Part shown: positions 1,994-48,435 of the stretch, piece after piece
Numbering within the stretch: the first letter of the stretch is position 1
Layout: each line of letters opens with the position of its first letter
NCBI GenBank assembly: GCA_001938485.1
Contig: MQRK01236397.1
Coordinates: 1-50,416 of the forward strand
Reading direction: 5' to 3'
DNA length: 50,416 nt
Source: Girardia tigrina
Lineage: Eukaryota
The notes under the pieces: generated by a model
Databases searched by the model: none
Told to the model about the DNA's origin: nothing
Seen by the model: the letters and a program-made list of their open reading frames with translations, nothing else
Translations under genes and position numbers: made by a program

Positions 1994-4900
1994 TTACAAA
2001 TAGAAGAGCCTATCATTCATTAAATTGCTCGGCTCAGCTTTCAAATTTTGGCCTACCATGTATGCTAATTTATGCGCATACATACATGGAGCTGGAACTC
2101 GGACAGTTCCCGGCCAGTTGTAATATATATGGCAAGTTTTATAAGCCATTAATTGCACCTGATGAGGAGTATACTTCGAATTGTCATAAAGAATAACATA
2201 ATGTGTCGGAGTAACTGTTCCTTGTCGAACAGACTGAGATACAAGAAAGAAATCGTACAGATTTGCACGTGTCACTGTGTGATCGACAACTGTTCCAGGG
2301 TTTGGATTGCTCACTTGTCCCTTGATTTTCGGATCGCTGACATAAAGTCGTGTATTAATTCTTTTTTGAACAACATTGTAAACCATATTTGGTTTATAAT
2401 CAGCACTAAAAGATTCAAATGCTTTCAGGAATTGTTCAATCTCAGTCTTTTGAACCAATCCCAATTGACCATCACTAACACCATCACGATACATGAAGAT
2501 TGTGTCAGGAAGGAAGTTATTCTCCTCAAAATATGCCTTCAAAAGACTGATCATGCATGATTGTAATACATCGACAATCTCCTGATGGGGTCGTTGAAAC
2601 GCTGATTTCGAGAACCATCGCGTACAGAGAGCATTTGTAGACCCAACAACAGCTCCAACACTTTTACCCCCGCCTTTTGATCGACCTCGAAGCGGCGAAT
2701 CATGCCAAACATCCAAACCGACGGCCATAAATTTTTTTATCGGAATTTTCACTGCCCACAATTCTCCACCCAGTTTAGCATTGATTTGAAGAGCAATGTT
2801 TACTGCAACACTGTTCAATTTTGGTCCTTCTTTTAACGTTTGACCTAACACAACTTGACTCGGTACTGGACTGTCCACATAGCAAAACTTCTTGATAGCG
2901 TTATATCGATCCTCCCGAACAGCAGAAAGAATAGTAACTACTAATTGAACCCCCGAAGTAACATTGCGCTTCAGTTCTTTCAAATATTCCTCTGTTCGAT
3001 CATTATTCATTTCTATGAGTTTCGGATTCTTGAACATTACACCTACTCGAGGAGCTTTTGTCATCAGAGCTTGTAGTAAAGCTTGAGCTTTGGTTGCCAA
3101 ACTTTTCGGAGCAATTAGAACCCAATTTTCAATTCGAATTCCGCCAATTACTTTATTGTGAGCCAACGCTTGCTTAAACTCTGCGTTATCTCCGGCACTG
3201 ACCGATGATTCATTGCCGAAATAAATCATCTCCGGATTCATTTTACAGGCATTAATGTTGACTGTATCTCGTTCAATAGAAATACCCCAATAACCTAGCA
3301 ATTTATTCGCTTCTTCGCAGTTATAAATGTTATCAACAAATTCCAGAAGTGCTTCATGTCTCTTTTTTGGGGTAACTCGACAATGTTCATGTAACTCACG
3401 CATTAAACGGAAATCTTTGATCATTTCATCGGTGAGTCCAGTTAACATACACAATTCTGGAATTAGGTACACCATATTATCTTCAGGTTGTTTTGACACC
3501 GATCCTTTAGGTACCCTTGGAGCTTTGCTTTTCGTTTTGCTGACTATCATCGGTTGTTCAAGATCGCGAATTTGTAAGCCATACGTATTTCTACACAAAA
3601 TCAAATTTTAATTAATGTTATTTATTTTAGTAATCGTACTTGAAATAATCTCGATAGCTGATTTTCTCACCTCCTTTATCGAATTCACTCATGCAATTCT
3701 TATTCCAATCAATATCTGTTATTCTATAATTTCGATTATTGTGTGGTGTCAAAACAATTTGGCCAAGCAATTGATTGATACACTCCGTTTGCATTTGACC
3801 TTTATTAGTGGCGGATTTATTAATTTCCATCATTATGTCATATACACTATCATTTCGTATGACCTTGTGTGACACATCACATTGTAGCAACAAGCCGCCA
3901 TCAAAATTCTGAATACTGGTGACATAACCTGGCCAGATCTCCATCCTGAAATCAATTTAAGTTTTAAAATATTTTTGATGCAAAATATTAATTTTTATTG
4001 TATATGAATATTCTAATACATTTTATAGAAAAGATGATTAAATAATAAATAAATCTCTAATAAAAACAGATGTAACCGTAACGAGGTATATTTTTAAATT
4101 ATACAAAAAAATAACAATGTATGTTTATTAAGCCCTTTACCATGGAAAAACTTTTTTTAGGAAACTGTGTAATTGTTTTCTTTCATTATTTGATTTATGC
4201 TGTCCTGACAAAATAAATCATCATTGTGAGTGAAAAATAGTTGACATTTTGAATTTATGAGGTAAATATAAAGGCAATTTTTGGTATTTTTTCAAATTAA
4301 GCCCAAGATTTAATATGACGAGTTAACTCGTGACACACGGTAAAGGGGTTAACAAAATTTTAGTTAAAATATTTTAATGACATTTGTTGTTTTGAAAAGA
4401 TTTGATTAAACAGTATTGGTTGTAAAATAATTCCTCTTAGTGACAATAAAAAGAAACCTTTAAAAATTAATGCACCTATTCGCAGTCAGAAATTCCACCT
4501 AGGCATTTACTTCATACATAAAATGTTATGATTTTCATATCGATTTCGATTTAATTTATCAATGAAAATTTGTCTAGTTAATTAATTTATAACTTTTTAC
4601 TCATTTAAAAATTTTGTAATTATTAAAGATTATAATTTATTAACGCGACGAATGTCATAAAAATGTCCTAAATACTTAAGGATCTTACAAATGATGTATC
4701 TGTATGTACTGAGCTTGTGTTTAGATTTTTTCTACTCATATAAAATAATATACATTTCATTGCAAAGTACCTATTAGAATGAACCCCACATGCCTTAAAA
4801 TTAGTTACATTATGCGTTTAAACTTATGTACATATTTCAATCCAGGAATCTAATCAAAAGTTTTTGTGACATTTCTGAATAGAGAACGGAACATTATGAT

Positions 4901-6072
4901 CACAAATCAAAATTCATATAATCGAAAAGCAATAGCTTTAATTAAACCAACCTTCGTCGATCAAGAACAATTTTCTTTTCCGGATAGAAGTAATCTCTAC
5001 CGATTTTCACCATTCTTAGTGAATTCTCAATCCGCTTAAACAACACATTGTAAACCATTGGACATTCACTGAAATTCACATTATTCGTGAACACAATTTT
5101 GATATCGACCGGAGTCTTATCGGTCGGTTTCGTTCCTTTAATAATCTTCAAAAATAAGAATTATTAAACTTATTTAGTATCAACAAAAATCCACATACAT
5201 TTTCTTTACTTTTCAACAATTGCGGAATATAGAGATTCATTCCATCGAACGCTCGTGCTTCTTTGACGACTCCCAATTCAGCTTCAGTGAGATTTTGAAT
5301 AATTTTAATTCTCATCAATCGTGAATCAATCGGTGGAGCAAACGACACGTGATATTGATAGATATGCGGTTGAGTAGTTCTCACTTTCACGTAATTGGCG
5401 CTTAAACTCAAACCCGGTGATATCTCGTTCCTCGTGGCAGCCGGCTCCTTGATAGGTACCGGATGCTCTCGTCGTCGGAATCGTGGCTTCTCGCTGTTCT
5501 CGAATTTCGATTTATCGTCCGACGATGAAATCGTCATTTTATCGTCGCCGGAAATTTTCATTTCTTTCATTTCATTTGAAATCTGAAAAAGAATTAAAAT
5601 AAATTCAAATTAATCGATTTTTTTTAATTTTCCAGACTTCAGATGGGGTGGAAATGGAGCATTCTCTGTGGGAACTGAGAAGACCGCGACCGCGTCCGAT
5701 AACTTTTTTCGGTTGTCCGGGTTCTTCTGATTCGATAATTTTGTCCGATTGTCCCGAAGACGTCGTCAAACTCGACGGATTACTCAAACCTCGGCCTCTT
5801 CCGATACAAGACAGGGGACGCTTAACGATACTGACGTTCTTGTTTTCGATATCACTGTCTTGTAATTTTGGATTGCTACGAGAATCACCGCTGGAAATCG
5901 AACTCGATTCTGTCGTTTTTTCGGCCGAAGAACCCGGTGGTGGAATGCCCAATTTGTTTAATGCTTTATCTTCCAGTGATTCCACAGAAGGAACTGGGAC
6001 GTCTTTGTTTAGAAATTTCTGCATCAAGAGGCCGCGACTGCGACCTCTACCGATCCCGCTACTGCCAGACAT
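1994..6072 (-). CDS. piwi: PIWI-clade Argonaute, planarian SMEDWI-3/PiwiC-like (5 exons, ~971 aa)
   Basis: Exons 6072-5638, 5582-5199, 5145-4952, 3945-3640 and 3590-1994 join by GT-AG introns (55, 53, 1006, 49 bp) into one 2916-nt ORF. The N-terminus has three GRGR motifs. PAZ: VLTPHNNRNYRITDIDW, YLIPELC. MID: RYNAIKK, PSQVV, QINAKLGG. PIWI tetrad: GLDVWH / QE / YRDGV / YAHKLA. It ends RLFYL. The paralog assignment rests on recalled N-terminal style and length. Confidence 0.96.
4132..4348. mobile_element. TTAA-flanked (piggyBac-like) MITE in piwi intron 3
   Basis: TTAA|GCCCTTTACCATG ... CACGGTAAAGGGG|TTAA, i.e. short TIRs with TTAA on both sides. Confidence 0.65.
4675..4895 (+). repeat. Dispersed ~220-bp repeat, copy 1
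   Basis: Colinear with 40492-40715; shared blocks GGATCTTACAAAT, ATTTCATTGC, AGAATGA, ATCCAGGAATCTAA, GAGAACGGA. Confidence 0.75.
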
Positions 6073-7104
6073 GATAAGTAATAGAATCAATAAATATCAA
6101 TGGCCGTCTGTTATTTAAACAAAATTATTTTATTATTAATAGTGCACTTTTTAGTTAATATTATTCAATTTAAAAAATAATGAATTTGTATTTTAATTTT
6201 TTTTTAAAATCATTAAAACTTTATTTACATTATTTTAATTTGAGAATTTATCAATGGAGAGGCATACTAAAGTATATTTTATTACATAATGAAAATTGCT
6301 TTAAGATAGCATCGACAAAAAGTGATTATAAATAGTAATGTCAAGAATTGGTAATTTAAATTTGCATCTTAGATAAACTGAGATGTCGAGTTTTTACTCT
6401 ATTAAGTAGTGTCTTTAAAAATTATCAATAATGTTAAAAAATAAGAACAAGTTTTTTATTTTTTTTATTTTCAAACAGTACTATAACCTGTTTTTTTAAA
6501 GATTTCAGCTAAAACTTTCTTACTTTTTAAATACTCTAAATTTAGAAATTCTATGCTAGTAATTTTTAGTTTAAATCTACTCTTAATAATTAATATCAAT
6601 GTTAAAGAATTGATTAATAACATAAAGATTGCTTTTCAATTAAAAATTAGAATTTCAAATTTTCGAATTATAATTTACACAAAGTATAATAATGTTGAGG
6701 ATCATTACATCAGTCCTAGAATGAAGGGAATGTATGAAAGAGCATGTATAAATGTTTTAAAAATTATTTTTATTTTTTTACCCTTTTGAATAAACTAAAT
6801 ATGTCGAAAATTTAAAGTTAATATTGTTTTGAAAAAATGTCAATAATTGTAAAAACAGATATCAAAAAGTACTTTAGAAGTTCATTGTTTTATACACCAT
6901 TTAATTGAAATTCAATAAATAAAAAATGTAATTACTTTTCGTTAATAGTTTTTAAAATAATAAACATTATATTTCATTTTCTTAAATTGTATCGCAAAAG
7001 ATAGTTTTTTATTTAAATTATAAAATTTTAGTAAATTGTTTTTGAAATAATAAAATTTGTGTTTCGTTTTCGTACATTTTATGGATTAAGTAAAATTTAA
7101 ACCC

Positions 7105-9175: not shown

Positions 9176-9297
9176 AATAACTATATTTTTAGTTCAATTC
9201 AATGACAAAATATCAATTTCATATGAAAAAAATCAATTTTTATGAAAAAATATGTATTTAATATAAAAATATCAATTTAATATGAACTAATGTTTTC

Positions 9298-9877
9298 ATG
9301 ATCCCTCAGAGTTCAATATCCATACACAATAACTTGTTCTGAACCATCCTTCGGTCTCTGACTTAATACACGTCCAATTGCTGAAAAACTGGCATCTGTA
9401 TCCAGAATAATTTCACGATCCATATCTGGAAAACATAATACTGGAGTTGTTTTAGTTTTTTGAAACTGGTTTCGCATTCATCCGACCAACAATATTCATC
9501 CTTTGAGGAGCAAGCCGCATATAACGGACTTGCAATCTGAGCAAAGTTCTTTATAAACCGCCTGCAATAGTTGGCGAAACCGAGAAACGATCGTAATTGA
9601 GTTACACACTCCGGTATTGGTGCCTGAATAATTGATTTAATATTTTCCTTGTTTGTCTCAATGCCTTGTTTGCTTACGACATGTCCTAAGAATTGAACTT
9701 CTGTTTCTTTTACCTTACAATTGTTTTGGATTTATCTTTAGACCTGCATCACATATTCGTCTAAAAACTTCTTCAAGTCTGTTGTCGTGTTCTAGTTCTG
9801 ATGTTCCATAGACTAGTATATCATCCAAGTATACTAATACACCTTTATAAACCATATCACGAAAAATCTCATGCATA
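9298..9877 (-). mobile_element. Ty3/gypsy pol fragment (RT C-half + RNase H N-part), disrupted
   Basis: Minus-strand translation gives VLVYLDDILVYG, QFLGHVVSKQGI, LRSFLGFANYCRRFIKNFAQIASPL, TPVLCFPD and ILDTDASFSAIG, with stops and frameshifts. Confidence 0.93.
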
Positions 9878-9896
9878 AATGAGATTGATGATGTAA

Positions 9897-12190
9897 TTAG
9901 ACATAATTACTGGGTACTCCCCATTGATTCCTTTTTTCAATGTTCCTGTATTCATTATCATCAATCTTTTCTATATCTGGATTAATTGGTTTCATTTCTT
10001 TAAATTTAATAAATGGATAGGAAGGAAGAGGTGTTAAATTCGCAGATGGATAGTATAAATTTTGATCCAAAGTTTCTTGATTTCTCAAAATTTGAATTTG
10101 ATTTTCATATGTCGTCCAGTCATTTTTGGATACACCTGTTGGTTGAGCTTGATCTATACTTGTTATTTCGTTTCCATTATCATCTTCATTTCTTCTTCCA
10201 TCACTCGTTGTACTTGGATCACTAAATGAATCATCTGAATTTGACTCAAATTGTACCTTTTTATTTTTTCCTTTCCGATTTCGACGACTTTTATATTTTT
10301 TACACTGTTTAACTGTTGTTTTTAATGAGTTAATTTCTTTACTATGGTTATGGATAATTAAAAATTTTGCTAAAGTGGGTATACATCCAACGATCAATTG
10401 CCAAGATACACCAACCATTGTATACAATCTATAAGTCGACAGAACGTGTGTTAAGACAACTTTTAACAAAACGTATATCACATAAACACCAATAAAGCCT
10501 GCATATGCCTGACCAAAGAAAACAAATTTTCCCCAAATCTTTTTTAGAGTATTACATGCTGCTTTTTTATAATGATCAACACTTAAAAATTATCATAATT
10601 AACCTGACCAACACCTCCTGGTAGGACAGTCTCAACAATTTCTGTTATAACTCTTTCTCGTTTTGAAGGAAACAGTAAATTTCTTCGAGCATCCTCCACT
10701 TCTTCAGGCAAATAAATACCTGTTGTAGACATTTGATCCAAAGATGTAAAGTTTATAAGATAATCCAATTTTGTCAATTCCAATTTTTCGACATTTTTTA
10801 CATCTTTATTGTTTGGTAACGAAATCCACGTGTCAGGAGTCACTCGATATAATGGGGCTGTAATATCATTGCAATGTAGTAATACTGGTTTAGTACCATT
10901 TTCAGTTAAAACTCTTGTTATAGGTTCCACATACCTTAATTGTCCCTGATAATTCACTGGGAGTTCGTTAGTATACTGATTGAGCTTAATTAGTTGAACG
11001 GAAACTTCTTTACATTTATAAGTATATAGGACTTCTCCCATCACTCTACCGAATACCCCATTTTCTGAAACTAGCATTGGTGTTACTAGGCTTGGATTTG
11101 TGAAAACTAAACCTATCCGGTTTTTCAAAATTTCCATATTTAGCTTACAATCATTCAATATTACTTCTCGATAAATATTCTCAATGGTAAATTGGTTAAA
11201 ATGAAATGCAAAATCAATTTTATTACTTTGATATTGTGATAATTTCACATCAGCGTTATGTACAATTCCAGCATCTGGAAGTTTTTTCTTTGGAAACATA
11301 TAAACCTTTATAATTCGTAGTGTAAATCATTTTTCCACAAAACTTCTGTTTATCTTTCCTAATAAATCTCATTCCATCGGATGTAAGCGAGGACATTAAA
11401 ACAGTTGCTAATTTCTTTTGAATTATTGGATATGCCTTTCGAGTTTGGTACTTTTTTGGCTTTAAAATATCCGGTCTTTCTCTAATTTGCATTCCCTGAG
11501 CTTCAATAAAGTCTGCTGATTTCAAAAATGCCAAATTGCACTCTTTGTAATTAACATTATACAATAAAACTGACTCTCCAGTCTGACAATTTGTTTCTCT
11601 AAAGTTGCAAAATGGATGTGATTTTCCCGTTGCATCGTCAAATATTCCATCAAATGTTCTTAATTCTGTTTGATACTTTTCCGAAATCATAATTTTTTGT
11701 ATAATTTTTCCTCCCAATTTTACAGGTTCACCTTCACAATCACCATTTACATCTATAACTCCCTTTCTAACAACTGATTCTCTCATAATTGCTCCTTCTT
11801 TAGCTGCGAGTTTTAAAGTTTCATCAATTTTTAATTCTTTCGTTTGAAATGCAGCTTCACAATTTTCAGGTAATATCTTCACAGGTCTGGGAATTGCATT
11901 TATCTTGATAATAGAAGTATGACTCCATTTTCCACAATGATAAATATAAGTTGCTCTTTTTACAATACATTCCCTTACTTTAGCTCTACGAAATCCAGAT
12001 TCCTGATATAGATGATACAAAACATTTGTTTTTTCTTGAATATGTAATTGGTAAGCTTCTGAACATTCTGCTATATCTAGAAGAGAATAAATTTTACCGA
12101 CTTCAGCCTGAGAACAATCATACGCTACAAAAGCTTGTGTTTGATTCATTCCAAGAATAATAAATAATATTAAAGTAAACCACCATAATT
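9897..12190 (-). pseudogene. Chuvirus-like class III envelope glycoprotein (env), near full length, 2 frameshifts
   Basis: Signal peptide LWWFTLILFIILGMNQTQA, then FVAYDC..YSLLDIAEC, ECIVKRATYIYHCGKWSH, GEVLYTYKCKEVSV, NELPVNY..YVEPITRVL..GT, and a C-terminal WGKFVFFGQAYAGFIGVYVIYVLLKVVL..YRLY TM region. ORFs 11256-12599, 10583-11299 and 9897-10481 join through frameshifts at an A-run (~11285) and a T-run (~10587). Confidence 0.85.
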
Positions 12191-12569
12191 TTGAAGTTTT
12201 TTCTTTATTAAATACATGTTTTGTCTTATCATTATTAATATTATCAATACTTTTCATAGCTTTTTGTAAAAATGATTTATCTATTCTTGGAGTCAATGAT
12301 TCTTGGATTTCACAAATACTTTCTATTTTCATGTTATTAACAATTTTCTCATTATCAATACTCTCCAGAGGTACTTCTGGTTCACATTTTATTTCATTTT
12401 CGGTGATCATTGGTATAATTTCGTTAGTATTCCTCATAACATTATTATCCATAAAATTTTTATCATAATCATTAATATATTCTCCCAAGAAAATCACTTG
12501 AATTTGATTTATTTCACCATCTAAAATACCATAATCATAAACGTAATCCTCATCTTCTTGTGTTCGAAA

Positions 12570-14420
12570 ACGTTCGATCTGCCGTCGGTTGGGACGCATA
12601 AGATTGCTTGAGAATCGTCATTCCATTGGCCGACTGCTTGGGTTGCAATTCGTGTTTCCAGTGAATAGTCTATCCAAGAAAATTTTTCGGTGGAACCTTC
12701 ATATCTCTTGCCCCCCCCATTTATAATCACACATTCTCCCTCTTCTGATCAGTCATGATCAGAATCATTAATTTCACCCACAATCAAACTCATCACACCT
12801 TTTTTCCTTTCTTCCCAAATACAACATTCAACATCATTCAAAAACTCAACTTCACATCATTCTTCATTCACTCACCAACGTTTGATATACCTAATTTTAT
12901 TTTATTCCCCTGTATTGTGAATCTCAGCCACCCAGATCGAAATACCTCCGCAATATTTACTCTTGATCCTCCAGTTAATCTCTTGCATAATCTTATTTAT
13001 ATGATATCGAAACTCATGGGTTTTCGTGACTTTCCTCTCTCCATCTGCCATCACATTTCCAATATGTGTTTCGAATTTCAAAATTTCTGCGAATGCTCAG
13101 CCAAATTCTTTATTGAAATATCTCCCGTTTTCTATTCTGTGGAAGCTCTCAATTTTGTATTCTTTTTGATTCCTTTCCATCCTACAAGCAATCTGTGAAA
13201 CAAAATAGCCAAGGAAATCAGAGATAGCGAACAGAACAAACACCAATAAACCAAATACACAAGAACCCAAACCTCCATGAGCAGCTTTGTTTGGATCCCC
13301 AGATCTCTTTAGACCTCTGAATTGAGCTTTATTACAAACGTCTCGTTTTTCGATATTAAACATCTCTTTCGGTACTCTCTGATCTAGACTATTCATTTTT
13401 GCTCCAATTTCTTTTGTATTGTTTATCATTTCGATCCATTTACACGTTTTAGTGATATCTTCGCAGTCACTTTCCTATTTTTGTTCGTTATGGAAATCGT
13501 GAATTGATAACGTTTCGTTGAGATTCTGATCCATTTGTAATTCTTCAACACTCACAACTTCAGTTGATTTATTCTGGGTTTCATTCTCTTCAAAATTGTC
13601 ATTTGACGAAATTACTGTTTCAAAATTGTCAACAATTGATTGATCAATTTGAATTTCAGACAAGTTCTGATGATCAACACTAACTTCGCAGATGTCTTTT
13701 CCGTTGTGACTCTCAAACTCCTTTTCGAATTCAACTGATTCTTGAAATTCGTTTTCGTGTTTTTCGGTGTTTATTTCCTTTGGAGAACTTTTTTCCGTAT
13801 GACCCATCTGTGAGAAAATTTGATTATCTGCTCCGAATTCCGCTAACCGTCTCTGCAATTTCCAATCATTTTCTGTGAGTCTATTTCCTCGTCAACTGTA
13901 GAATCTTTAATATGCTCTTTCTTTTTCTTTTCGTTTTCATTTTCATTTTATTCGATAATAACTTCATCATTAACATTTTCAAACACTCTCAACTCATCAA
14001 GAACTTCTATAGATTCTTCTTAATGCTGATCTCTTTTTTCTCTTGTTCAAGTGATTCTTGAACCATAATCTCTTGTTGTTCGACCGTAATTTCTTCGGGA
14101 TGTTGAGGAGGATTCTCAGGAGACTCTTCTCCATTCTCATATTCCTTGATTTGTTCCTCGATTTCCCTGTGCTCACAATGTTCCTCTTGCTCATCCTCAA
14201 CTACCTTTTGCATTCGATTTTCATGTTCCAACATTTTGATTTCGTTTTCATTAGATACATCTTTAATTTCCATCGACTGTTGAACACTTTCTTCAATTTT
14301 ATTTTAATATTTAATTTAATTAATATTTAATATTTAATTTAATAATTTTAATATTTATTCACACACATAACCATCATACCACGAACTTCGATAGACGAGC
14401 TGGTGCTGGGCCCATTTTTG
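12570..14420 (-). mobile_element. 5' internal region of an LTR retroelement: disrupted E/K/N/Q-rich accessory ORF with a hydrophobic segment
   Basis: Fragmented ORFs 14007-14273, 13475-13858, 13097-13429 (GSCVFGLLVFVLFAISDFLGYFV) and 12521-12730 lie downstream of an LTR end and PBS at 14403-14420. Confidence 0.6.
14403..14415 (-). promoter_or_regulatory. Primer-binding site complementary to the anticodon arm of initiator tRNA-Met
   Basis: Minus strand reads ...CCGTCACA-AAA-ATGGGCCCAGCAC. The plus strand GTGCTGGGCCCAT equals the conserved eukaryotic tRNAiMet segment ending at the CAU anticodon. Confidence 0.75.
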
Positions 14421-14840
14421 TGACGGTACAGCTCGTCGATCGAAGCTCGCATGGAATTTGGAAAAATAGTCAAAACGCTTGCTTATCTATTATTTATTTT
14501 TGTAATGACCTCTTTTTATTTCGACATCAATTTGAAGTTGGCGTGTGTGTGTACGTGTGATGGAATAACTAATGGGTCTCTGATTTTTTTTTGTTATGTG
14601 ATTTTTTCTTTGAGAATGAATGTTTTTTGTATTATTATTTATGTTATTTTTTTATATTTAACATTTCATTTTTGTCATATCTTTTAAATTAATTATTCTT
14701 ATCCATCACTGAATATTTCAAGTGATACAGAAATATTTGTGATCGATAAAAATATTGATGGCAAATTAATTTAAACAATAGTTAAAATAACAGATTTGTC
14801 GTCCCCAAAATAAAAGGAAAACAAATTTGTTATATTTACA
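14419..14840. mobile_element. LTR sequence(s), TG...CA, with an outward-facing PBS on each side
   Basis: Starts TGTGACGG at 14419 and ends TTTACA at 14840. A PBS abuts each end in opposite orientation. Confidence 0.6.
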
Positions 14841-14841
14841 T

Positions 14842-16290
14842 TGGTGTCAGAAGTGGGATGAACTCACAAAAACCCACATTTTCATTACATCTTTAATCAC
14901 AACAATCAAAATTACCTTATCATAAATATCAAGAACTGTTGCTTACTTAGAATAAATTTTACAAGTACAACTATCTCATTTTAAGAAATGCCTCCATACA
15001 AAATTAAATCCCCAGTACATAAACAAACTTTCTCAAACACAATACAACATTTAACAAACAATATACCAAACTATACAAACCATATTCGTTTTCAGGTCAC
15101 AATTCGTTTACAATTCACAAACAACACATTACAACATATAACAAACATATAACAAAAATAATATAAAAAAATAACTCAACATATAACAAAAATTCAAATA
15201 TTAAAACACTACAAAAAATTAATCGAAAATGCAAATATGTAGATTTTGAACCACTTGGTCCAAAAAATTGTAAAAATTGATAATAACATCCTAAAAAAAA
15301 GAAATTTCAGATCTCAAACGATACTTAAAAGAAAAAAATCAATATCCATAAAAGAAGAAACAGAAAACCATAAAGGGATTCTAGAAACATCAATAGAAAA
15401 AAACATGTTCTGCTGGTACCACACTAAGTTTAAAGGCAATGCACCCTTGCTCATTCAAACAAAAAAACATGCACAAAAACCAAGGATTCGAACGTTTTAC
15501 AACTCCAAAATAAAAAAGTTCATAAAAAAGATTATGTGGAAGAGATAAGAACACTGATACAAAAATGAGAAATCTTTTATAAAATATTGACTGTAACAAA
15601 ACCAAAACAGAATTTTTCGAAAAAAAGCAAGCAACACAAACCCAAAAAACCATATCCATGACAAAAATTATCAGAAAAATCTCTTCAAACTAGTAGAGAA
15701 AGAAACACTTACAAACCAAAACTTTCGATAAAGAAATACAAACATAATCAATATTAATTAGAAAATTCAGAGATAATTATTCACAAACCAAAGACACGGA
15801 ACACAATCAATTAAAACCAAGACTCCGAGAAATGTATACCAACCCATCAATAAATAAAAATAAATCAATTCAAACGAACATCATAACCATAAACAAAACT
15901 CAAAAATCAACAGACGTAATCGCGGAAAAGCAAAGCAACATCAATTCAAGTAGAGAATTCGAAGAATCAATAATGAAACCAAAACAAGATTTTGAAAAGA
16001 ATGAACAACACAGAAATAAACACAATAAATAACAACAAAAACTAAGTTAACAATTCAAACTTTGAAAAAGAAAAGATACTCATGAATCAAAACGTTTTTG
16101 AAATTGGAAAAGAAAATAAGGTAGAAATATATAAAGATTTTCTAGCATTGGTTAAAAACAATGTTAACGATACTTTCGAAGGACCCTATCAAATAATGGA
16201 TCAATTAAACAAGTCTTTTATTTTAAACATAGAAGGCAAAGCAATAACAATCAACTTTCTGTTCGACAAAGTCACAAAATGAAATAAACT
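14842..16290 (+). mobile_element. Degenerate non-autonomous gypsy element (tRNA-Leu PBS, gag and integrase-tail remnants)
   Basis: PBS TGGTGTCAGAAGTGGGAT at 14842-14859 (complement of the tRNA-Leu 3' end). Gag-type CWYHTKF motif at ~15410. Integrase GPY/F tail FEGPYQIMDQLNKSFILNIEGK at ~16175-16245. No RT is recognisable. Confidence 0.75.
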
Positions 16291-16726
16291 TCGATGTTTT
16301 CGTAGGCATTGAATTTTCAATGACTATTCTAGTTTACTTACACATCGAATAACTGAACCAACATAATAAACATCCTACAAAATCTTCAGCAGATGAGGAA
16401 AGTCAACGGTAAATACAACCTCGGTTATCTCACATTTTTTCGTTCCCCATTGAATAAGAGATATCTGAGTTCTACTGAACATATAAATAAATCCTGCTTG
16501 AATTTTGTTTCATATATTATTTATATAAATAAATAATTATAAAAAAATCATATTAATTGAAAATAAATATTCTTGAGACTATCCAGCAACAGTAAATTTA
16601 ATAAAAAATAAACCAGCAGAAATTAATATAATTGAAAACAATTGAATGAATACAAATGCACTGTAAGGAATTAAACAAAACAGTGAATAATAAAGAATAT
16701 CACTAGAACAGAATCATGAACGATTC

Positions 16727-25600: not shown

Positions 25601-28600
25601 CTAATTCGTTTGATAAATTTCTGTATTACATTATCTTGATTATGACCGAATTCCTCATCCATTTTCGCTTCAGTATCGGACACTGGTAGATCAAGCATTT
25701 CTGCTGCCACAACATCAGCTAATGATTCTTCTCGCATCCAAATCGCATCTCCTAATTTTATCAAGTTTTTATAATATATTTTATTAATAATTTATAAAAA
25801 ATAATTACATAATACTTAATGTCGGATTAATCGGTTGTAAATAGTTACTTTCAATTTAACATAAAAGTTTAATAAAGTGAGTGTTTTAGCTTCAGTTTAT
25901 TGTTCATTTAAGATTATTGTTAAGAGAACTCACACATTTGTCAGAACATTTATTATATTCCCAATTTTTATCATCTTTATGATGATCAACAGTAAGGCTT
26001 TCACTAGATTCCATCAATCAATTTTTCAATATCTCTNNNNNNNNNNNNNNNNNNNNNNNNNNNNNNNNNNNNNNNNNNNNNNNNNNNNNNNNNNNNNNNN
26101 NNNNNNNNNNNNNNNNNNNNNNNNNNNNNNNNNNNNNNNNNNNNNNNNNNNNNNNNNNNNNNNNNNNNNNNNNNNNNNNNNNNNNNNNNNNNNNNNNNNN
26201 NNNNNNNNNNNNNNNNNNNNNNNNNNNNNNNNNNNNNNNNNNNNNNNNNNNNNNNNNNNNNNNNNNNNNNNNNNNNNNNNNNNNNNNNNNNNNNNNNNNN
26301 NNNNNNNNNNNNNNNNNNNNNNNNNNNNNNNNNNAACATACAAAAACTACACAAAAACATCCACACACCAAATATTCCTCACAATTATAAAGCCCTGAAT
26401 CTCATCAATAATTAATTAGTAAATCAAAAAATTAATTTTTTATATATCCATTCTTTATGGAGACAGAACTCTACTTTGCCAACAAAGTTTTAATTAAAAA
26501 AATACTATAAACAGTTATTATAAACTACTTATAATTTATAAGTAGATATTTTTCAATTAATATTTTTTCCCATTTTGGGACCTTAAAAAGTTTTTTTCGA
26601 TCAAATTTTTACATAATCATTTGTAGTCATTATTAGTGGTTCTTGGGACATCGTCAGAATTATTAGTAGCAGACATTAAAACATATATTATACTACAAAA
26701 AATGTTTAAATCTAATATTTAAACAAATTTATTTTTTTTGAGAAACTATTTGTTTTATAAATCTTAAACCGATATAGATAAAAAATACTTATAAATATTC
26801 ATATTTGATTTTTTTAATTACTTATATAAATCAATTTTATATTACGATAACACTTTAAAATATTTAGTCGTTTCATTTAATTTTATTACTTTTTTAAAAA
26901 TCGTTTCACATAAAAAATATACACTTTTTTTACTTTTTATATTATATTAAAACTCTCAAAAAATTTTATTAGCAATTTAATTGATCTTCTTAATTTTAGT
27001 AATTTTATTTTTTTCAAACGTTACATTTAATTATATAAAAATTTTAATTTGTACATATTTAATATAACCTTCTTTCAAAAATTTTACTAACATTTTTAAT
27101 TCCTAACAGTCATCGAGAATGAGTAAGTGTGAAAAGTTTGAAGAAAATCGTGACACAATTTCAAGTTGAAATATGTAAAGATATCCTGGGATATACATTG
27201 AATGCTCAAAGCTATGGTCGTGTATAGATCTTTGACTTGTGTTGGAGATTATTGTTATCTACTGGTGCATCTGCCGTGACTGTGTCGGTAAGATTTGTCG
27301 TCACCGCATTTGATATCAGTGGGTTATATTGACCGGTATTGTGTTTATACCATGTCGAGTTGGAATATTTGATATTCAACACTATGCACATTTTGGTTAA
27401 ATTCTTTATAGTTGTACCTGAAAGATGTAATTTGTTTTTAAGCAGGTTATCATTATCGGCGGGCCAAGATCCTAAACAGCCGACAACAATTGCTCCTAAT
27501 ATTACAGTCCATCCTTTATGAGCCGCTTTTGCTTCAGTTAGCAGACTTTTATATTTCTTTTTGTTGTTATCTCTGGCATCTTTAAGTGCTTTGATTGTGT
27601 CAAAAGGGGTTTTTATATTTATAAGCCAGAGTTCTTTGGTTATAAATTTGTAAATCAACCCGGCTTCCCGACACAGACCAATCACATTCTCGATTCATGA
27701 TGATTTTTAAAATTGGTTTCTCTGAAAGTAAAGCATCTGTGACGATTTATGCGATTGCATTATGTCTCGCCTGTATCAGAATGCTGTTGGGTTTACACCA
27801 ACGTAGAATATGGATCTGTGTTTCTATATCTTGACCACATGCCCTGCACATCGATTGTTGCATTGGTTTTCTCGGCTTATAATTGGTTGGTAAATTATTA
27901 GTCCTTATGCTGTGGTAAAAGCGCCATTCCTCGATGGATAGTGACTCATTGTATAGTACTTTGGAGCTGAAGTTTTGTTCTGCCAATGAGATGGCTGACA
28001 TTCCAGCCATCCTTTGTTTGCTCCATTTGTCAAATTTCATTTTGTTATAGATTCTGTGCAAGTGGAAAGTTATATTGTCAATTGAATGTTCATTTAGTAT
28101 CATGGAATCATTGGATATGTGAACTTTTAAACAAATACCTAGCTCGTTGGTGACAAACTGAATTTGTAGCCCAATGCCTTTCAAGTATTTGATTGAATTC
28201 CGAATCTTGGTCCACCAAGATTTAAATCCATTCTCTTTGTCACCTGTGTTGATCCAGTTTAGGCAATCAGAGAGTGTCCATTCTTTTTTAGTACCGTGAT
28301 ATCTGTCTAGGGTGTTGAATAAATTGATAAATGTGACATGACGCGATGTTTCGCCAGAGCACACCATGTTCCTGTACGTTTGAATTAAAGATTGTATTGC
28401 TTATTCATCTCGGACAGAGACTAAGCCTAAACCACCTTTTTTCTTGTCAGTTTAAATGTAATCATTGGATGAATTTGGGAACGTTCCACAAATCTTCTTC
28501 AAGTAACGACGAATTTCCACATTAAGGCCGCTTTTAAAGATAGATTTCGTGGTGGCCATAATCTGTAAGTTCCCTGTTTGGTATATTATAGTTTCGAAAA

Positions 28601-29457
28601 TAGAAGGTGAATCGTGAGTGTATGAAGATTCTATACGCTTCAATTTTCTGCCAGGGAAATAATATTGATTTGGTTATTTTTTTCAAGTCCTTAATAGCTG
28701 ATAGAAATAGACGTTCAGGAGTGAATTTTGTCTTTCTGGTAAAATATACTCCGAGATAACGGTAACCTCCTTCATCTGTGACTATAGGTATTTGTATGTT
28801 ATTAATATGGATTGATTCATTCATAAGAGGAGTTGATAAATATCCACACTTGGCTGGGTTGAACTTCATAGAAGTCCATTCAACCATGTCACATGCAGAT
28901 GAAACCATGGCTTGTAAACAAGAGTTGCTGGTTGAAACTAGTGCAATATCATCTGCATATGCCAGACAAGTAATCTTAACAGCCTCGCTGTCAATACCAA
29001 AGGCATCATTATCTTGTAGTGCAGTCAAAATTGGATCAATGCCAACGCTGAACAGCAGCATGTAAAGCGGACATCCTTGTCTAACCCCATCCTGATTGAT
29101 ATGTCTTCAGTCGTACAATCATTGCAGGTATATGTTGATGAACAATCTGAGTACAGATTTGCAATGAGAGAGTAGGATAATGAGTCTAGACCTTTTCTTC
29201 TGAGAACTTCTAATATATGTTACATTAATATATATTACATTAATTGGTTCATTCCGGTTCGTTCTCCGTTCTTTGATTTGTCAAATTTTAGGGATTTTAT
29301 AGTTGTATCCAGAAACTCTTCGGCCACCACATTTAATAATTCGATATTTTTATTATTAAAGTGGTTAACCGGCATTTTACTATTTAATTCGACAATTTCT
29401 TTAGTTAAATGCGATAAGGCCTTGAGTAAAAAACCTTTAAAAATAGGTTTCTAAATT

Positions 29458-35400: not shown

Positions 35401-37354
35401 ATATTTCCAGTATTTAATCTTAACACATAAGCATAATACTAATCAATAAATTTTATACTAAAAAATCTACAAAAATAAAACGCTATTCTTATTGTATATG
35501 TAAATAGATGGAACGTAGACCGAAATAGCTACAAAAAAACGCTGTAGTTACACAACTCTGTTTAACTCCACTATTATACCTTCACAATCCAAACTATGTA
35601 GAAGTCTGCAGTAATTAAGCAAGTTAGTGTTTAAAGGATAATGCCCTCGTATTGGATATTATTCACAGTGAACATATACGTTGCAACCATGATTTTTTGG
35701 AGTTGCCGAAGGTGATCACTAAAACAAGTGTTATCGAAGTACAACTTTTGATAATAGTGCAGGTTCTGGTGTCACTTTCTGCAATAAAATATGGATGATG
35801 ATCATGCCATAAATCAAGACTCATCTTAAATCTCCAGTATATAATTTAAATAAACGAAATTTTTGATTTAATTATGAAATTTTGTATTAAATTAACATTT
35901 CGAACTTTTTTCAATAATTAAAATTAATCGATAACATACTATATAAAACTGTTGGGGATGTATTAAAGAACATATCAAATAAATAATTGATTGGTGAAAT
36001 GATATTATTTTTAAATATTATTTTAAACTAATATTATTTTACATCATCCAAGTTTTTGTAAATTTAGATGACAATTTTAAGATGCTCCATCTTGTTGAAA
36101 AATTAAATCTTCATTGACATAATACTTTGGATGAAACATTCCGTTAATATCTCGGTATGTTCTGTATAGTTCATTGTTTCCTCTATAAAGTGAAGTCCTT
36201 TGTTTGTCATACACCCCAAATCATTACACTCTGGTAATTTCATATAGGCTTGCCTCATAAGTTTTGCCTCAAAAAAACACCAAAATACAATAAAATATAA
36301 AATATTTTATCAATCATCCACGTCATGCAAATGCGAAAAGTAGTCGCCATTGTGCTCAATACATCTCAGCCAACGTCCAGGGAGGCTACGTATCCCATTT
36401 TGGAAAAAAAATCACGCGGTTTCTTGTCAACCAATGTAGAAGATCTTCGTTGATATCGACATAATTCTTTCCTCTTTGGAGAGAATAGAAAGTAGTCAGA
36501 AGGTGAGAGATCGGGGGAGTATGGTGGATGTGGTAGTACGGTGAATCCAAGCGCATTCAGCTTGTCCTTGGTCTTAGCAGCCGTATGCGGTCGAGCATTA
36601 TCGTGGAGATAATGAACAATGTGGTTCCTTAGTAACCGTCTGCGCCTCTGCTGAACGGCGATAATGAGACGATCCAGTTGAGTACAGTAGACATTGATTG
36701 TAGCATTTGAGGTAAGATATCTAACAAGAGCAGTCCTTTACTGTTCCAAAAGACGGAGGCCTGATGCTTTCGGTTTGTCAGTCTTCATGCCGGTGTTGCA
36801 AGTGGGTTTTCATCCGATTTTCTCTATGATCGCCTTCCTTGTCCCAGTAAACCCATATCTCATCGCAGGTGATGATTTGGGACAGGAAATCATTCAGGTG
36901 ATAACTATCCAATAGCTGTTGACAAATTCTTTTGCGATTATCATTGTTCTGTTGCATCAGAGCGTGTGGCACCCAGCAATTTTCCCAAAGTATCGGTATC
37001 CCATTGCATTCAAAAACCTTGGTTTTATCCTGATCAATTCCCTCTACAATGTTCCTCGTTGTTACACGCTTGTATTCAGTCAGAAACTCCATTATCTTCT
37101 CGTCTATGTCAAGAGACTCCTTTCGCGGACGAAAATTGGTAATCCACCTTTCACATGTTCTCTTTGAGACTGTTCCAACTCCAAGGGCCGTGTTAATTTC
37201 GTCAGTCATCTGTGAGGGTGTTAAATCCATTTTCAACAATAGTAAATTAATTTATGAATATCAGAGCGATTAAAATACATTAGGATGATGAAAATGTGCG
37301 AAATTTTCGAATGCTATTGTAGTGACACAAAATTATAATCGGTATTTATAAATA

Positions 37355-47601: not shown

Positions 47602-48435
47602 TAAATATATGAATAATGAACACAAATTCTTTTATGAAACTTTATTTCAAATAACAAATATCGACAAGTCAAAAATAATAATAATAATTCAATTCTTGAT
47701 GACAGAACAAAACACAAAACAATATTTCGTACGAGTTAATAGATTACAGTCAAAACTGTGAATTCTCCAAAACGAACGATATTGTACTCTTTAAATTATT
47801 AAACCTTCTTCTCCGATACAGGGTACTTATGGTTTAATAATATTTTCAAAAGAATAAAATAAAAATAAAATAAGTTTTTACGTTACTTGTTAACGCGACT
47901 TCTTCTTGATTAAATTTCTTGCAAATATTTTTGGGCAAACTAAAACTAGATTTGCTGTTGTTTATATAGTAATTTTCCTCAGCCTTGAAAATTGATGAGA
48001 TAAAACAAAGAGTAAAATATTTATAATTTTTGATGAAGTAAAACAAATATTTATAATTTTTAATTCCGAGTTTTGTTAAACTAAATATTATTTTATTTGA
48101 AATTAATAATTTTACCAAAAGAACTATTTTAAATTTTACTTATATAAAATTTTATCAAGAAGTGTTCATATGCTTTTTCCAAAACCCTCAAAATCTCTCC
48201 CCAATAAAAAAATATCATCCTCGATATTTAGACGATAGTCAAATATATTTAAAATATATTTTAATTAAAAATTTATAAATATAAAATATAATTTATAAAT
48301 AATTTGCATCTTTAAGGGCGCAATCATAAAATTTTTGTTTATATTGAGAAATTTAAAACCTAATATCCTAATCAAAACAAAAAAATAAAAGAATAACGAC
48401 TCGTTTTGGGAATCTTTTGTAATAAAAAGAATTAG

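Follow-up and report, generated by a model that had tools for sequence, protein, structure and literature searches.

Does an envelope-like gene that lies beside reverse transcriptase sequences in the genome of the planarian Girardia tigrina belong to an enveloped endogenous retrovirus? The question is raised by a 50,416-nt stretch of DNA (GenBank assembly GCA_001938485.1, contig MQRK01236397.1, positions 1 to 50,416 of the forward strand), which at its full length is referred to here as the window. A first-pass annotation had described in it a near-intact, chuvirus-like fusion glycoprotein gene (env) of a gypsy-type long terminal repeat (LTR) retroelement that could be infectious. We find that the window copy is very probably a dead, twice-frameshifted env fragment of 2.66 kb from a high-copy Ty3/gypsy family, here designated family A, in other copies of which env is located between gag and protease, likely within one polyprotein.

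The fragment consists of three minus-strand frames (11,259-12,617, 10,586-11,326 and 9,900-10,589), which match Pfam family Monjiviricetes_fusion (PF24664) at profile positions 7-169 (E 3e-21), 300-509 (E 2e-34) and 524-633 (E 3e-17), respectively. Such successive and ordered matches are far beyond chance, and the first-pass annotation was right to join the three frames into one glycoprotein. The motifs that it listed are all present, starting on the minus strand at 12,125 (AYDC), 11,948 (YIYHCG), 11,038 (GEVLYTYKC), 10,972 (TNELPV) and 10,538 (IWGKF), and the internal signal, the membrane region and the charged tail are located as claimed. From the signal to the end of env the three pieces sum to about 770 codons. 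Both frame breaks indeed fall in homopolymers, the first in a run of A near 11,285 and the second in a run of T near 10,587. The residue before TNELPV, where a Cys had been expected, is Tyr in the window copy and Cys in a 94%-identical sibling (L034).

Judged by DNA identity to its siblings, the family A fragment spans 9,901-12,558 and is cut at both ends; its main blocks are 90-97% identical to near siblings and 69-82% identical to distant ones. All of its parts are on the minus strand. The fragment opens with the end of a gag-env linker (12,204-12,558), which aligns to the open reading frame (ORF) L043:6907-7953 of a sibling and comprises an acidic spacer and the last part of a ubiquitin-like repeat, the second of two, which was recognized by eye through its likeness to the first. 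A predicted internal signal peptide or signal anchor (12,126-12,203) follows: the signal-like stretch at codons ~144-168 is the sole hydrophobic stretch of the first frame (Kyte-Doolittle score, KD, 1.62), has a basic n-region and directly precedes AYDC. The ectodomain (10,540-12,125) contains both frameshifts and the Cys-to-Tyr change. The membrane region (10,353-10,526), defined by hydropathy, combines a long hydrophobic stretch (10,431-10,526, KD 2.18) with a second, weaker one (10,353-10,409, KD 1.74). The basic/acidic tail (9,901-10,352) runs in siblings in frame into protease; here its stop codon sits at the breakpoint, about 26 codons ahead of the DTG motif of the siblings' protease.

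Since a single-sequence model of the first window frame, built with no alignment, gave no usable fold (predicted local distance difference test score, pLDDT, 29.7), we turned to a natural sibling, L036, and modelled its ectodomain from a 113-row alignment. The resulting model has a mean pLDDT of 90.1 and a predicted template modelling score (pTM) of 0.74. In Foldseek comparisons with solved structures the best match was herpesvirus glycoprotein B (gB; herpes simplex virus gB, E 5e-14, TM-score 0.45). Among viral models the glycoprotein (G) of Tacheng tick virus 4, which we take to be a chuvirus, was matched with E 1e-37, and chu-like virus glycoproteins reached TM-scores of up to 0.72; identity in the top viral rows was 16-22%. 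A sequence search of solved structures returned no fusion protein, with weak protease and centrin matches only. Together with the PF24664 matches, the sibling model agrees with the earlier assignment, and the family A glycoprotein is predicted to be a class III fusogen nearest to chuvirus G and herpesvirus gB.

The middle env frame has at least 151 matches in the genome (150 scored of 2,854 candidates); among those listed, identity to it is 69-96%, the self match apart. We fetched 37 sibling contigs, giving priority to long open frames and, after that, to closeness and contig size; many of the apparent long open frames among the candidates were runs of N. The order of domains in family A is gag (capsid, CCHC knuckles), ubiquitin-like linker, signal, ectodomain, membrane region, tail, protease, reverse transcriptase (RT), RNase H and integrase, between LTRs. 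In 22 of 25 copies readable at this point protease comes directly after the env tail, and pol of the same family lies upstream of env in none of the 37 siblings; the layout is therefore gag-env-pol, not pol-env. Thus, the polyprotein fusion proposed in the first-pass annotation stands insofar as env is inside a gypsy polyprotein, and falls as to its possible pol-env order: the codons before the signal are the end of a gag-side linker. Single stop-free natural frames hold env, protease and RT in L030 and L037, and env and protease in L034, L035, L036, L021 and L032. Between capsid and integrase we compared 19 anchor-to-anchor junctions, and for every one of them at least one copy reads through in frame without a stop; the tail-protease junction is stop-free in 19 of 26 copies and the linker-signal junction in 6 of 13. 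Gag was found upstream of env in 9 of 19 readable copies. Taken together, the junction sequences suggest that gag, env and pol of family A are likely made as one polyprotein.

The pol domains occur in the order RVP, RVT_1, RT_RNaseH, Integrase_H2C2 and rve, and the family is of gypsy type by these domains rather than by an RT tree; no BEL/Pao Pfam family was matched in the siblings' frames. In the linker, the first ubiquitin-like repeat, in the sibling with ORF L043:6907-7953, matches Pfam ubiquitin with E 2e-4, below the cut-off; the second, in the end of which the window fragment begins, was recognized by eye. Siblings also share a conserved domain between protease and RT, which has no Pfam dUTPase match and can be called dUTPase-like from its position alone. 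As for homologs inside LTR-bounded elements, a check run in this genome found paired LTRs, 96-98% identical, in siblings. In one copy (C254850) the LTRs are 98.2% identical, have TG..CA ends, lie 12.9 kb apart and are accompanied by a 4-base target duplication, a PBS-like (primer-binding site) sequence and a purine tract. As a separate observation, the family A integrase (L021:4343-5980 (-), L033:757-1515) has a C-terminal extension of about 500 residues with a weak fibronectin type III match.

Family A env has been under long-term purifying selection. Compared pairwise with 15 distant copies, from which it is separated by a nearly saturated dS of about 1.6, the window env has a median ratio of nonsynonymous to synonymous divergence (dN/dS) of 0.11; for pol the ratio is 0.12 against 6 distant copies. 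Hence, env was kept by selection as strongly as pol during subfamily divergence.

A HMMER protein search gave 1,303 relatives at E up to 0.001 (word-indexed searches gave 2 and 1). A gag-env-pol-type layout occurs in the single ORFs P0004, P0005, P0009, P0012, P0015 and P0151. A quick env tree, built without bootstrap from 51 of 108 eligible rows that included the first 35 stand-alone proteins, groups family A with env domains of other gag-env-pol polyproteins (SH-aLRT 100), at least about 2 changes per column away from the 35 stand-alone G proteins. This grouping speaks against a fresh capture; the tree shows separation and gives no direction of transfer. Nematode NERVs reportedly have a continuous gag-env-pro-pol frame. 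Their Env precedes pol in a metavirus (Sacco et al. 2022, as cited in PMC13524379), as in family A, the host being a nematode.

The gag-env-pol design with a gB-type env is already published for flatworms (PMC6431247, PMC13524379). In Platyhelminthes, Nematoda and Bryozoa, Chary and Hayashi (PMC13524379) describe gypsy elements of GAG-ENV-POL order whose ENV is of gB type. They list six in Schmidtea mediterranea, among them Smed_errantivirus_1 and _2 with 45 and 215 near-identical copies, and their genome table gives ENV-POL matches, left unannotated there, in two further planarian assemblies. Given this published spread (PMC13524379, PMC6431247) and the env grouping, the independent acquisition by planarians put forward in the first-pass annotation is not supported. 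Family A resembles the Platyhelminthes elements in gene order, gB-type env, multi-copy state and size (their listed spans, flanks included, are about 14.5-18 kb), and by our by-eye count 47 of the first 70 positions of Smed_errantivirus_1 env domain I match the window frame. It differs in that its copies are decayed (dS about 0.13 among near siblings) and the window copy is a fragment, whereas the Schmidtea elements are intact. The published set was drawn up from intact full-length ORFs; since the window copy is a frameshifted fragment and no listed sibling is fully open, it is a relic of the GAG-ENV-POL kind and not an intact member. In the main text of that paper the words polyprotein, in-frame, ubiquitin and Burro do not occur, whereas family A shows env-protease read-through and a ubiquitin-like linker.

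Burro is a planarian element in which env is in frame between gag and pol and matches mononegavirus fusion glycoproteins (Arkhipova and Yushenova 2019, PMC6431247). The suggested comparison with Burro proved apt for the in-frame env and not for size and cargo. Like Burro/GYPSM1, family A has a CCHC gag, a ubiquitin/SUMO-like motif before env and an extra domain between protease and RT (PMC6431247), but it measures 12.9 kb from LTR to LTR against over 30 kb for Burro, and the Burro cargo domains BCL2, MATH, BIR and ankyrin (PMC6431247) have no match in the family A pieces scanned. We regard family A as a compact relative and not as Burro itself. The mosquito element 'Anakin' is of BEL/Pao type (PMC7642597), whereas the carrier in family A is gypsy, with env before protease. 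Family A env shares the class III fold and the Pfam family with G of Chuviridae/Jingchuvirales; unlike in Chuviridae, no L or nucleoprotein gene stands beside it (no match among 12 of the 14 long window ORFs, those scanned), and in siblings env is fused to protease. A literature search for experiments with Burro envelopes or planarian particles returned nothing relevant by title, subscription journals lying outside its coverage.

Several of the other relatives have features of their own. P0002 has a BCL2-like stretch just ahead of the signal (PF00452, E 1e-3, below the cut-off), as does P0001 by eye only, which resembles Burro (PMC6431247). In the env-pol polyproteins P0003, P0005, P0011 and P0151, env is followed by two to four aspartic protease-like domains, and P0151 (4,844 residues) also has ankyrin and C2H2 matches. 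P0004, a 2,627-residue env-protease-RT-integrase polyprotein, is annotated as a protein of a Flavobacteriaceae metagenome-assembled genome and likely reflects animal contamination of the bin.

At the window locus itself, similarity to the 37 sibling contigs is confined to 9,899-12,558, and the flanks are a mosaic. The adjacent RT/RNase H fragment (9,293-9,881 (-)) is joined to env via about 19 bases of filler and comes from another gypsy family, termed family B. Its identity to the 14 family B loci that were fetched, none of which has env, is 87-90%, and its protein identity to family A pol is 27-41%. The DNA on the other side (12,558-14,311 (-)) is repetitive and not related to family A. Its larger part (12,725-14,311) is likely BEL/Pao-derived with an acidic insert (family X); it is 79-85% identical to 14 fetched siblings, of which one has DUF5641 and none has env. 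The part at 12,558-12,740 is likewise repeated, without a link to X, and the junction at 12,558 is spanned by none of the 39 other matches. Farther on, repeat family Y, the fourth (14,835-16,309 (+)), starts with a PBS (14,842-14,859) and is oriented opposite to env. Consequently, the flanking RT/RNase H and LTR/PBS, which the first-pass annotation had taken to be env's own, are not. The family A LTR has no match near the env fragment and a weak match only near 48,100, no long direct repeat marks an LTR pair in the window, and gag was not found at the locus. 'Near-intact' thus gives way to a fragment that lacks gag, pol and LTRs and has two frame breaks. No particle is therefore possible from the window copy, and infectivity, which the first-pass annotation had considered for the lineage, is excluded for this copy. 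Deletions and recombination within a nest of retroelement remnants, which lies between EMC1 exons and a piwi gene, likely gave rise to it.

A number of observations weigh against the view that the window holds a dead piece of a gag-env-pol family. The modelled ectodomain is a sibling's and not that of the window copy. Gag is missing in 10 of the 19 readable copies, and LTR pairs were found in only three of the ten copies tested. The capsid-CCHC junction is stop-free in one of eight copies and the RNase H-integrase junction in one of ten, being in frame in just two. No copy with listed frames is open from gag to integrase, so that the single polyprotein, strongly indicated as it is, has been pieced together by junctions and not read directly. 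Finally, none of the sequencing-run contigs listed bridges either env junction, and the window junctions and frame breaks are not read-confirmed.

The last point, together with an assembly of 255,254 contigs and sibling copies that contain N gaps and local duplications, would fit a short-read assembly artefact, in which pieces of different repeats were stitched together and the true locus carries a fuller family A element. We consider this improbable. There is no N at either env junction, and the filler at the 3' join resembles neither side. Run contigs with 0-1 differences cover 12,610-13,384 in two DNA runs, and insertions and deletions break other family A copies as well. The run contigs that diverge from the window at both env junctions do so as siblings would. 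Even if the artefact were real, the family-level conclusion would be unaffected. Two further kinds of run data are of limited use: summed contig depth is 37,000-388,000 over env versus about 130-190 on locus-identical flank contigs, which cannot serve as copy number, and a 2.7-kb sibling contig in one run of guessed RNA type is not taken as proof of transcription. In two runs recorded as RNA about a quarter of the sampled words are present.

Much less likely is a near-intact enveloped gypsy provirus that uses the adjacent RT/RNase H and LTR/PBS and has an env acquired independently, in planarians, from a chuvirus. The fold nearest to chuvirus-type G and an adjacent, co-oriented RT/RNase H are what such a provirus would have, and the finding that GAG-ENV-POL elements are not monophyletic (PMC13524379) leaves room for several captures. 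However, the adjacent RT is that of another family, the PBS is on the other strand and gag is absent; env groups with retroelement env domains at a distance from stand-alone G. Unless the assembly is wrong, the flank comparisons refute a provirus at this locus.

Equally hard to sustain is the idea that the host co-opted env in a syncytin-like manner, or that the fragment serves the piwi gene 3.8 kb away as a regulatory element or a source of piRNAs. Trimming at both ends has come close to the env gene, which sits just upstream of piwi, yet the gene has two frameshifts and has lost a conserved Cys. Moreover, its dN/dS against near siblings (median 0.29, n=22, dS 0.13) exceeds that of sibling C200713 (0.17, n=20), in-frame Met codons occur in the truncated linker and the promoter of its own family is absent. 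The least probable alternative, a stand-alone endogenised chuvirus glycoprotein gene (a non-retroviral endogenous viral element) or Polinton cargo, would account for an env without its own gag, pol and LTRs, but it is refuted by the architecture of at least 150 siblings, with protease next to env in nearly all readable ones, and finds no viral L or nucleoprotein match in the ORFs scanned.

The surroundings of the dead env fragment contain several other features. The piwi gene (1,994-6,096 (-)), with a GRG-rich N-terminus, PAZ and Piwi domains, begins about 3.2 kb from the nest; its top match is 91% identical and the best named matches are Ago3/piwi-like proteins at 43-47%. The C-terminal exons of EMC1 (PF07774; 16,730-20,104 (-)) bound the nest on the other side. 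Farther away are a decayed RT-bearing element (RVT_1; 27,212-29,106 (-)) and a mariner-type helix-turn-helix fragment (36,778-37,251 (-)). Family X (12,725-14,311 (-); L080-L093) is multi-copy and has, after protease and apparently in place of RT, a long acidic low-complexity region with one hydrophobic stretch. In L085 the frame is 803 residues long, and L084 has polyubiquitin-like repeats upstream.

How a complete family A element might work can be outlined only tentatively. In the proposed scheme, the ectodomain would enter the endoplasmic reticulum by way of the internal signal, and Gag would stay in the cytosol, tethered by the signal anchor. The membrane region, with a basic cluster after it, would return the chain to the cytosol, so that protease and Pol would hang from the Env tail. 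Signal peptidase and the element's own protease would then free Gag, Env and Pol, which would be produced 1:1:1 and meet at one membrane. A working element would thereby give enveloped particles, likely passing between cells; the purifying selection on env supports such particles and their transfer indirectly. This topology is derived from hydropathy and the positive-inside rule for membrane topology. The second hydrophobic stretch (10,353-10,409) is the main risk to it: if membrane-spanning, it would put Pol on the wrong side of the membrane. It is in our view possible but rather doubtful that family A represents a compact, enveloped retrovirus-like element of planarians that remains active in living animals and builds its particles from a single Gag-ubiquitin-like-Env-Pol polyprotein, with Gag on a signal anchor and Pol on the Env tail.

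The window locus, then, is ordinary retroelement debris. Family A adds to the published flatworm gag-env-pol design a large, compact example in which env reads through into protease, the linker is ubiquitin-like and env has long been under purifying selection. It touches on the question of whether gB-type envelopes of invertebrate retroelements make infectious particles, which Chary and Hayashi call unclear (PMC13524379), and which the decayed window fragment renders no more testable than do the intact Schmidtea copies listed there. If the doubtful proposal of an active enveloped element were true, family A would have a packaging route unlike those of retroviruses and insect errantiviruses and would be an element spreading between somatic and stem cells.

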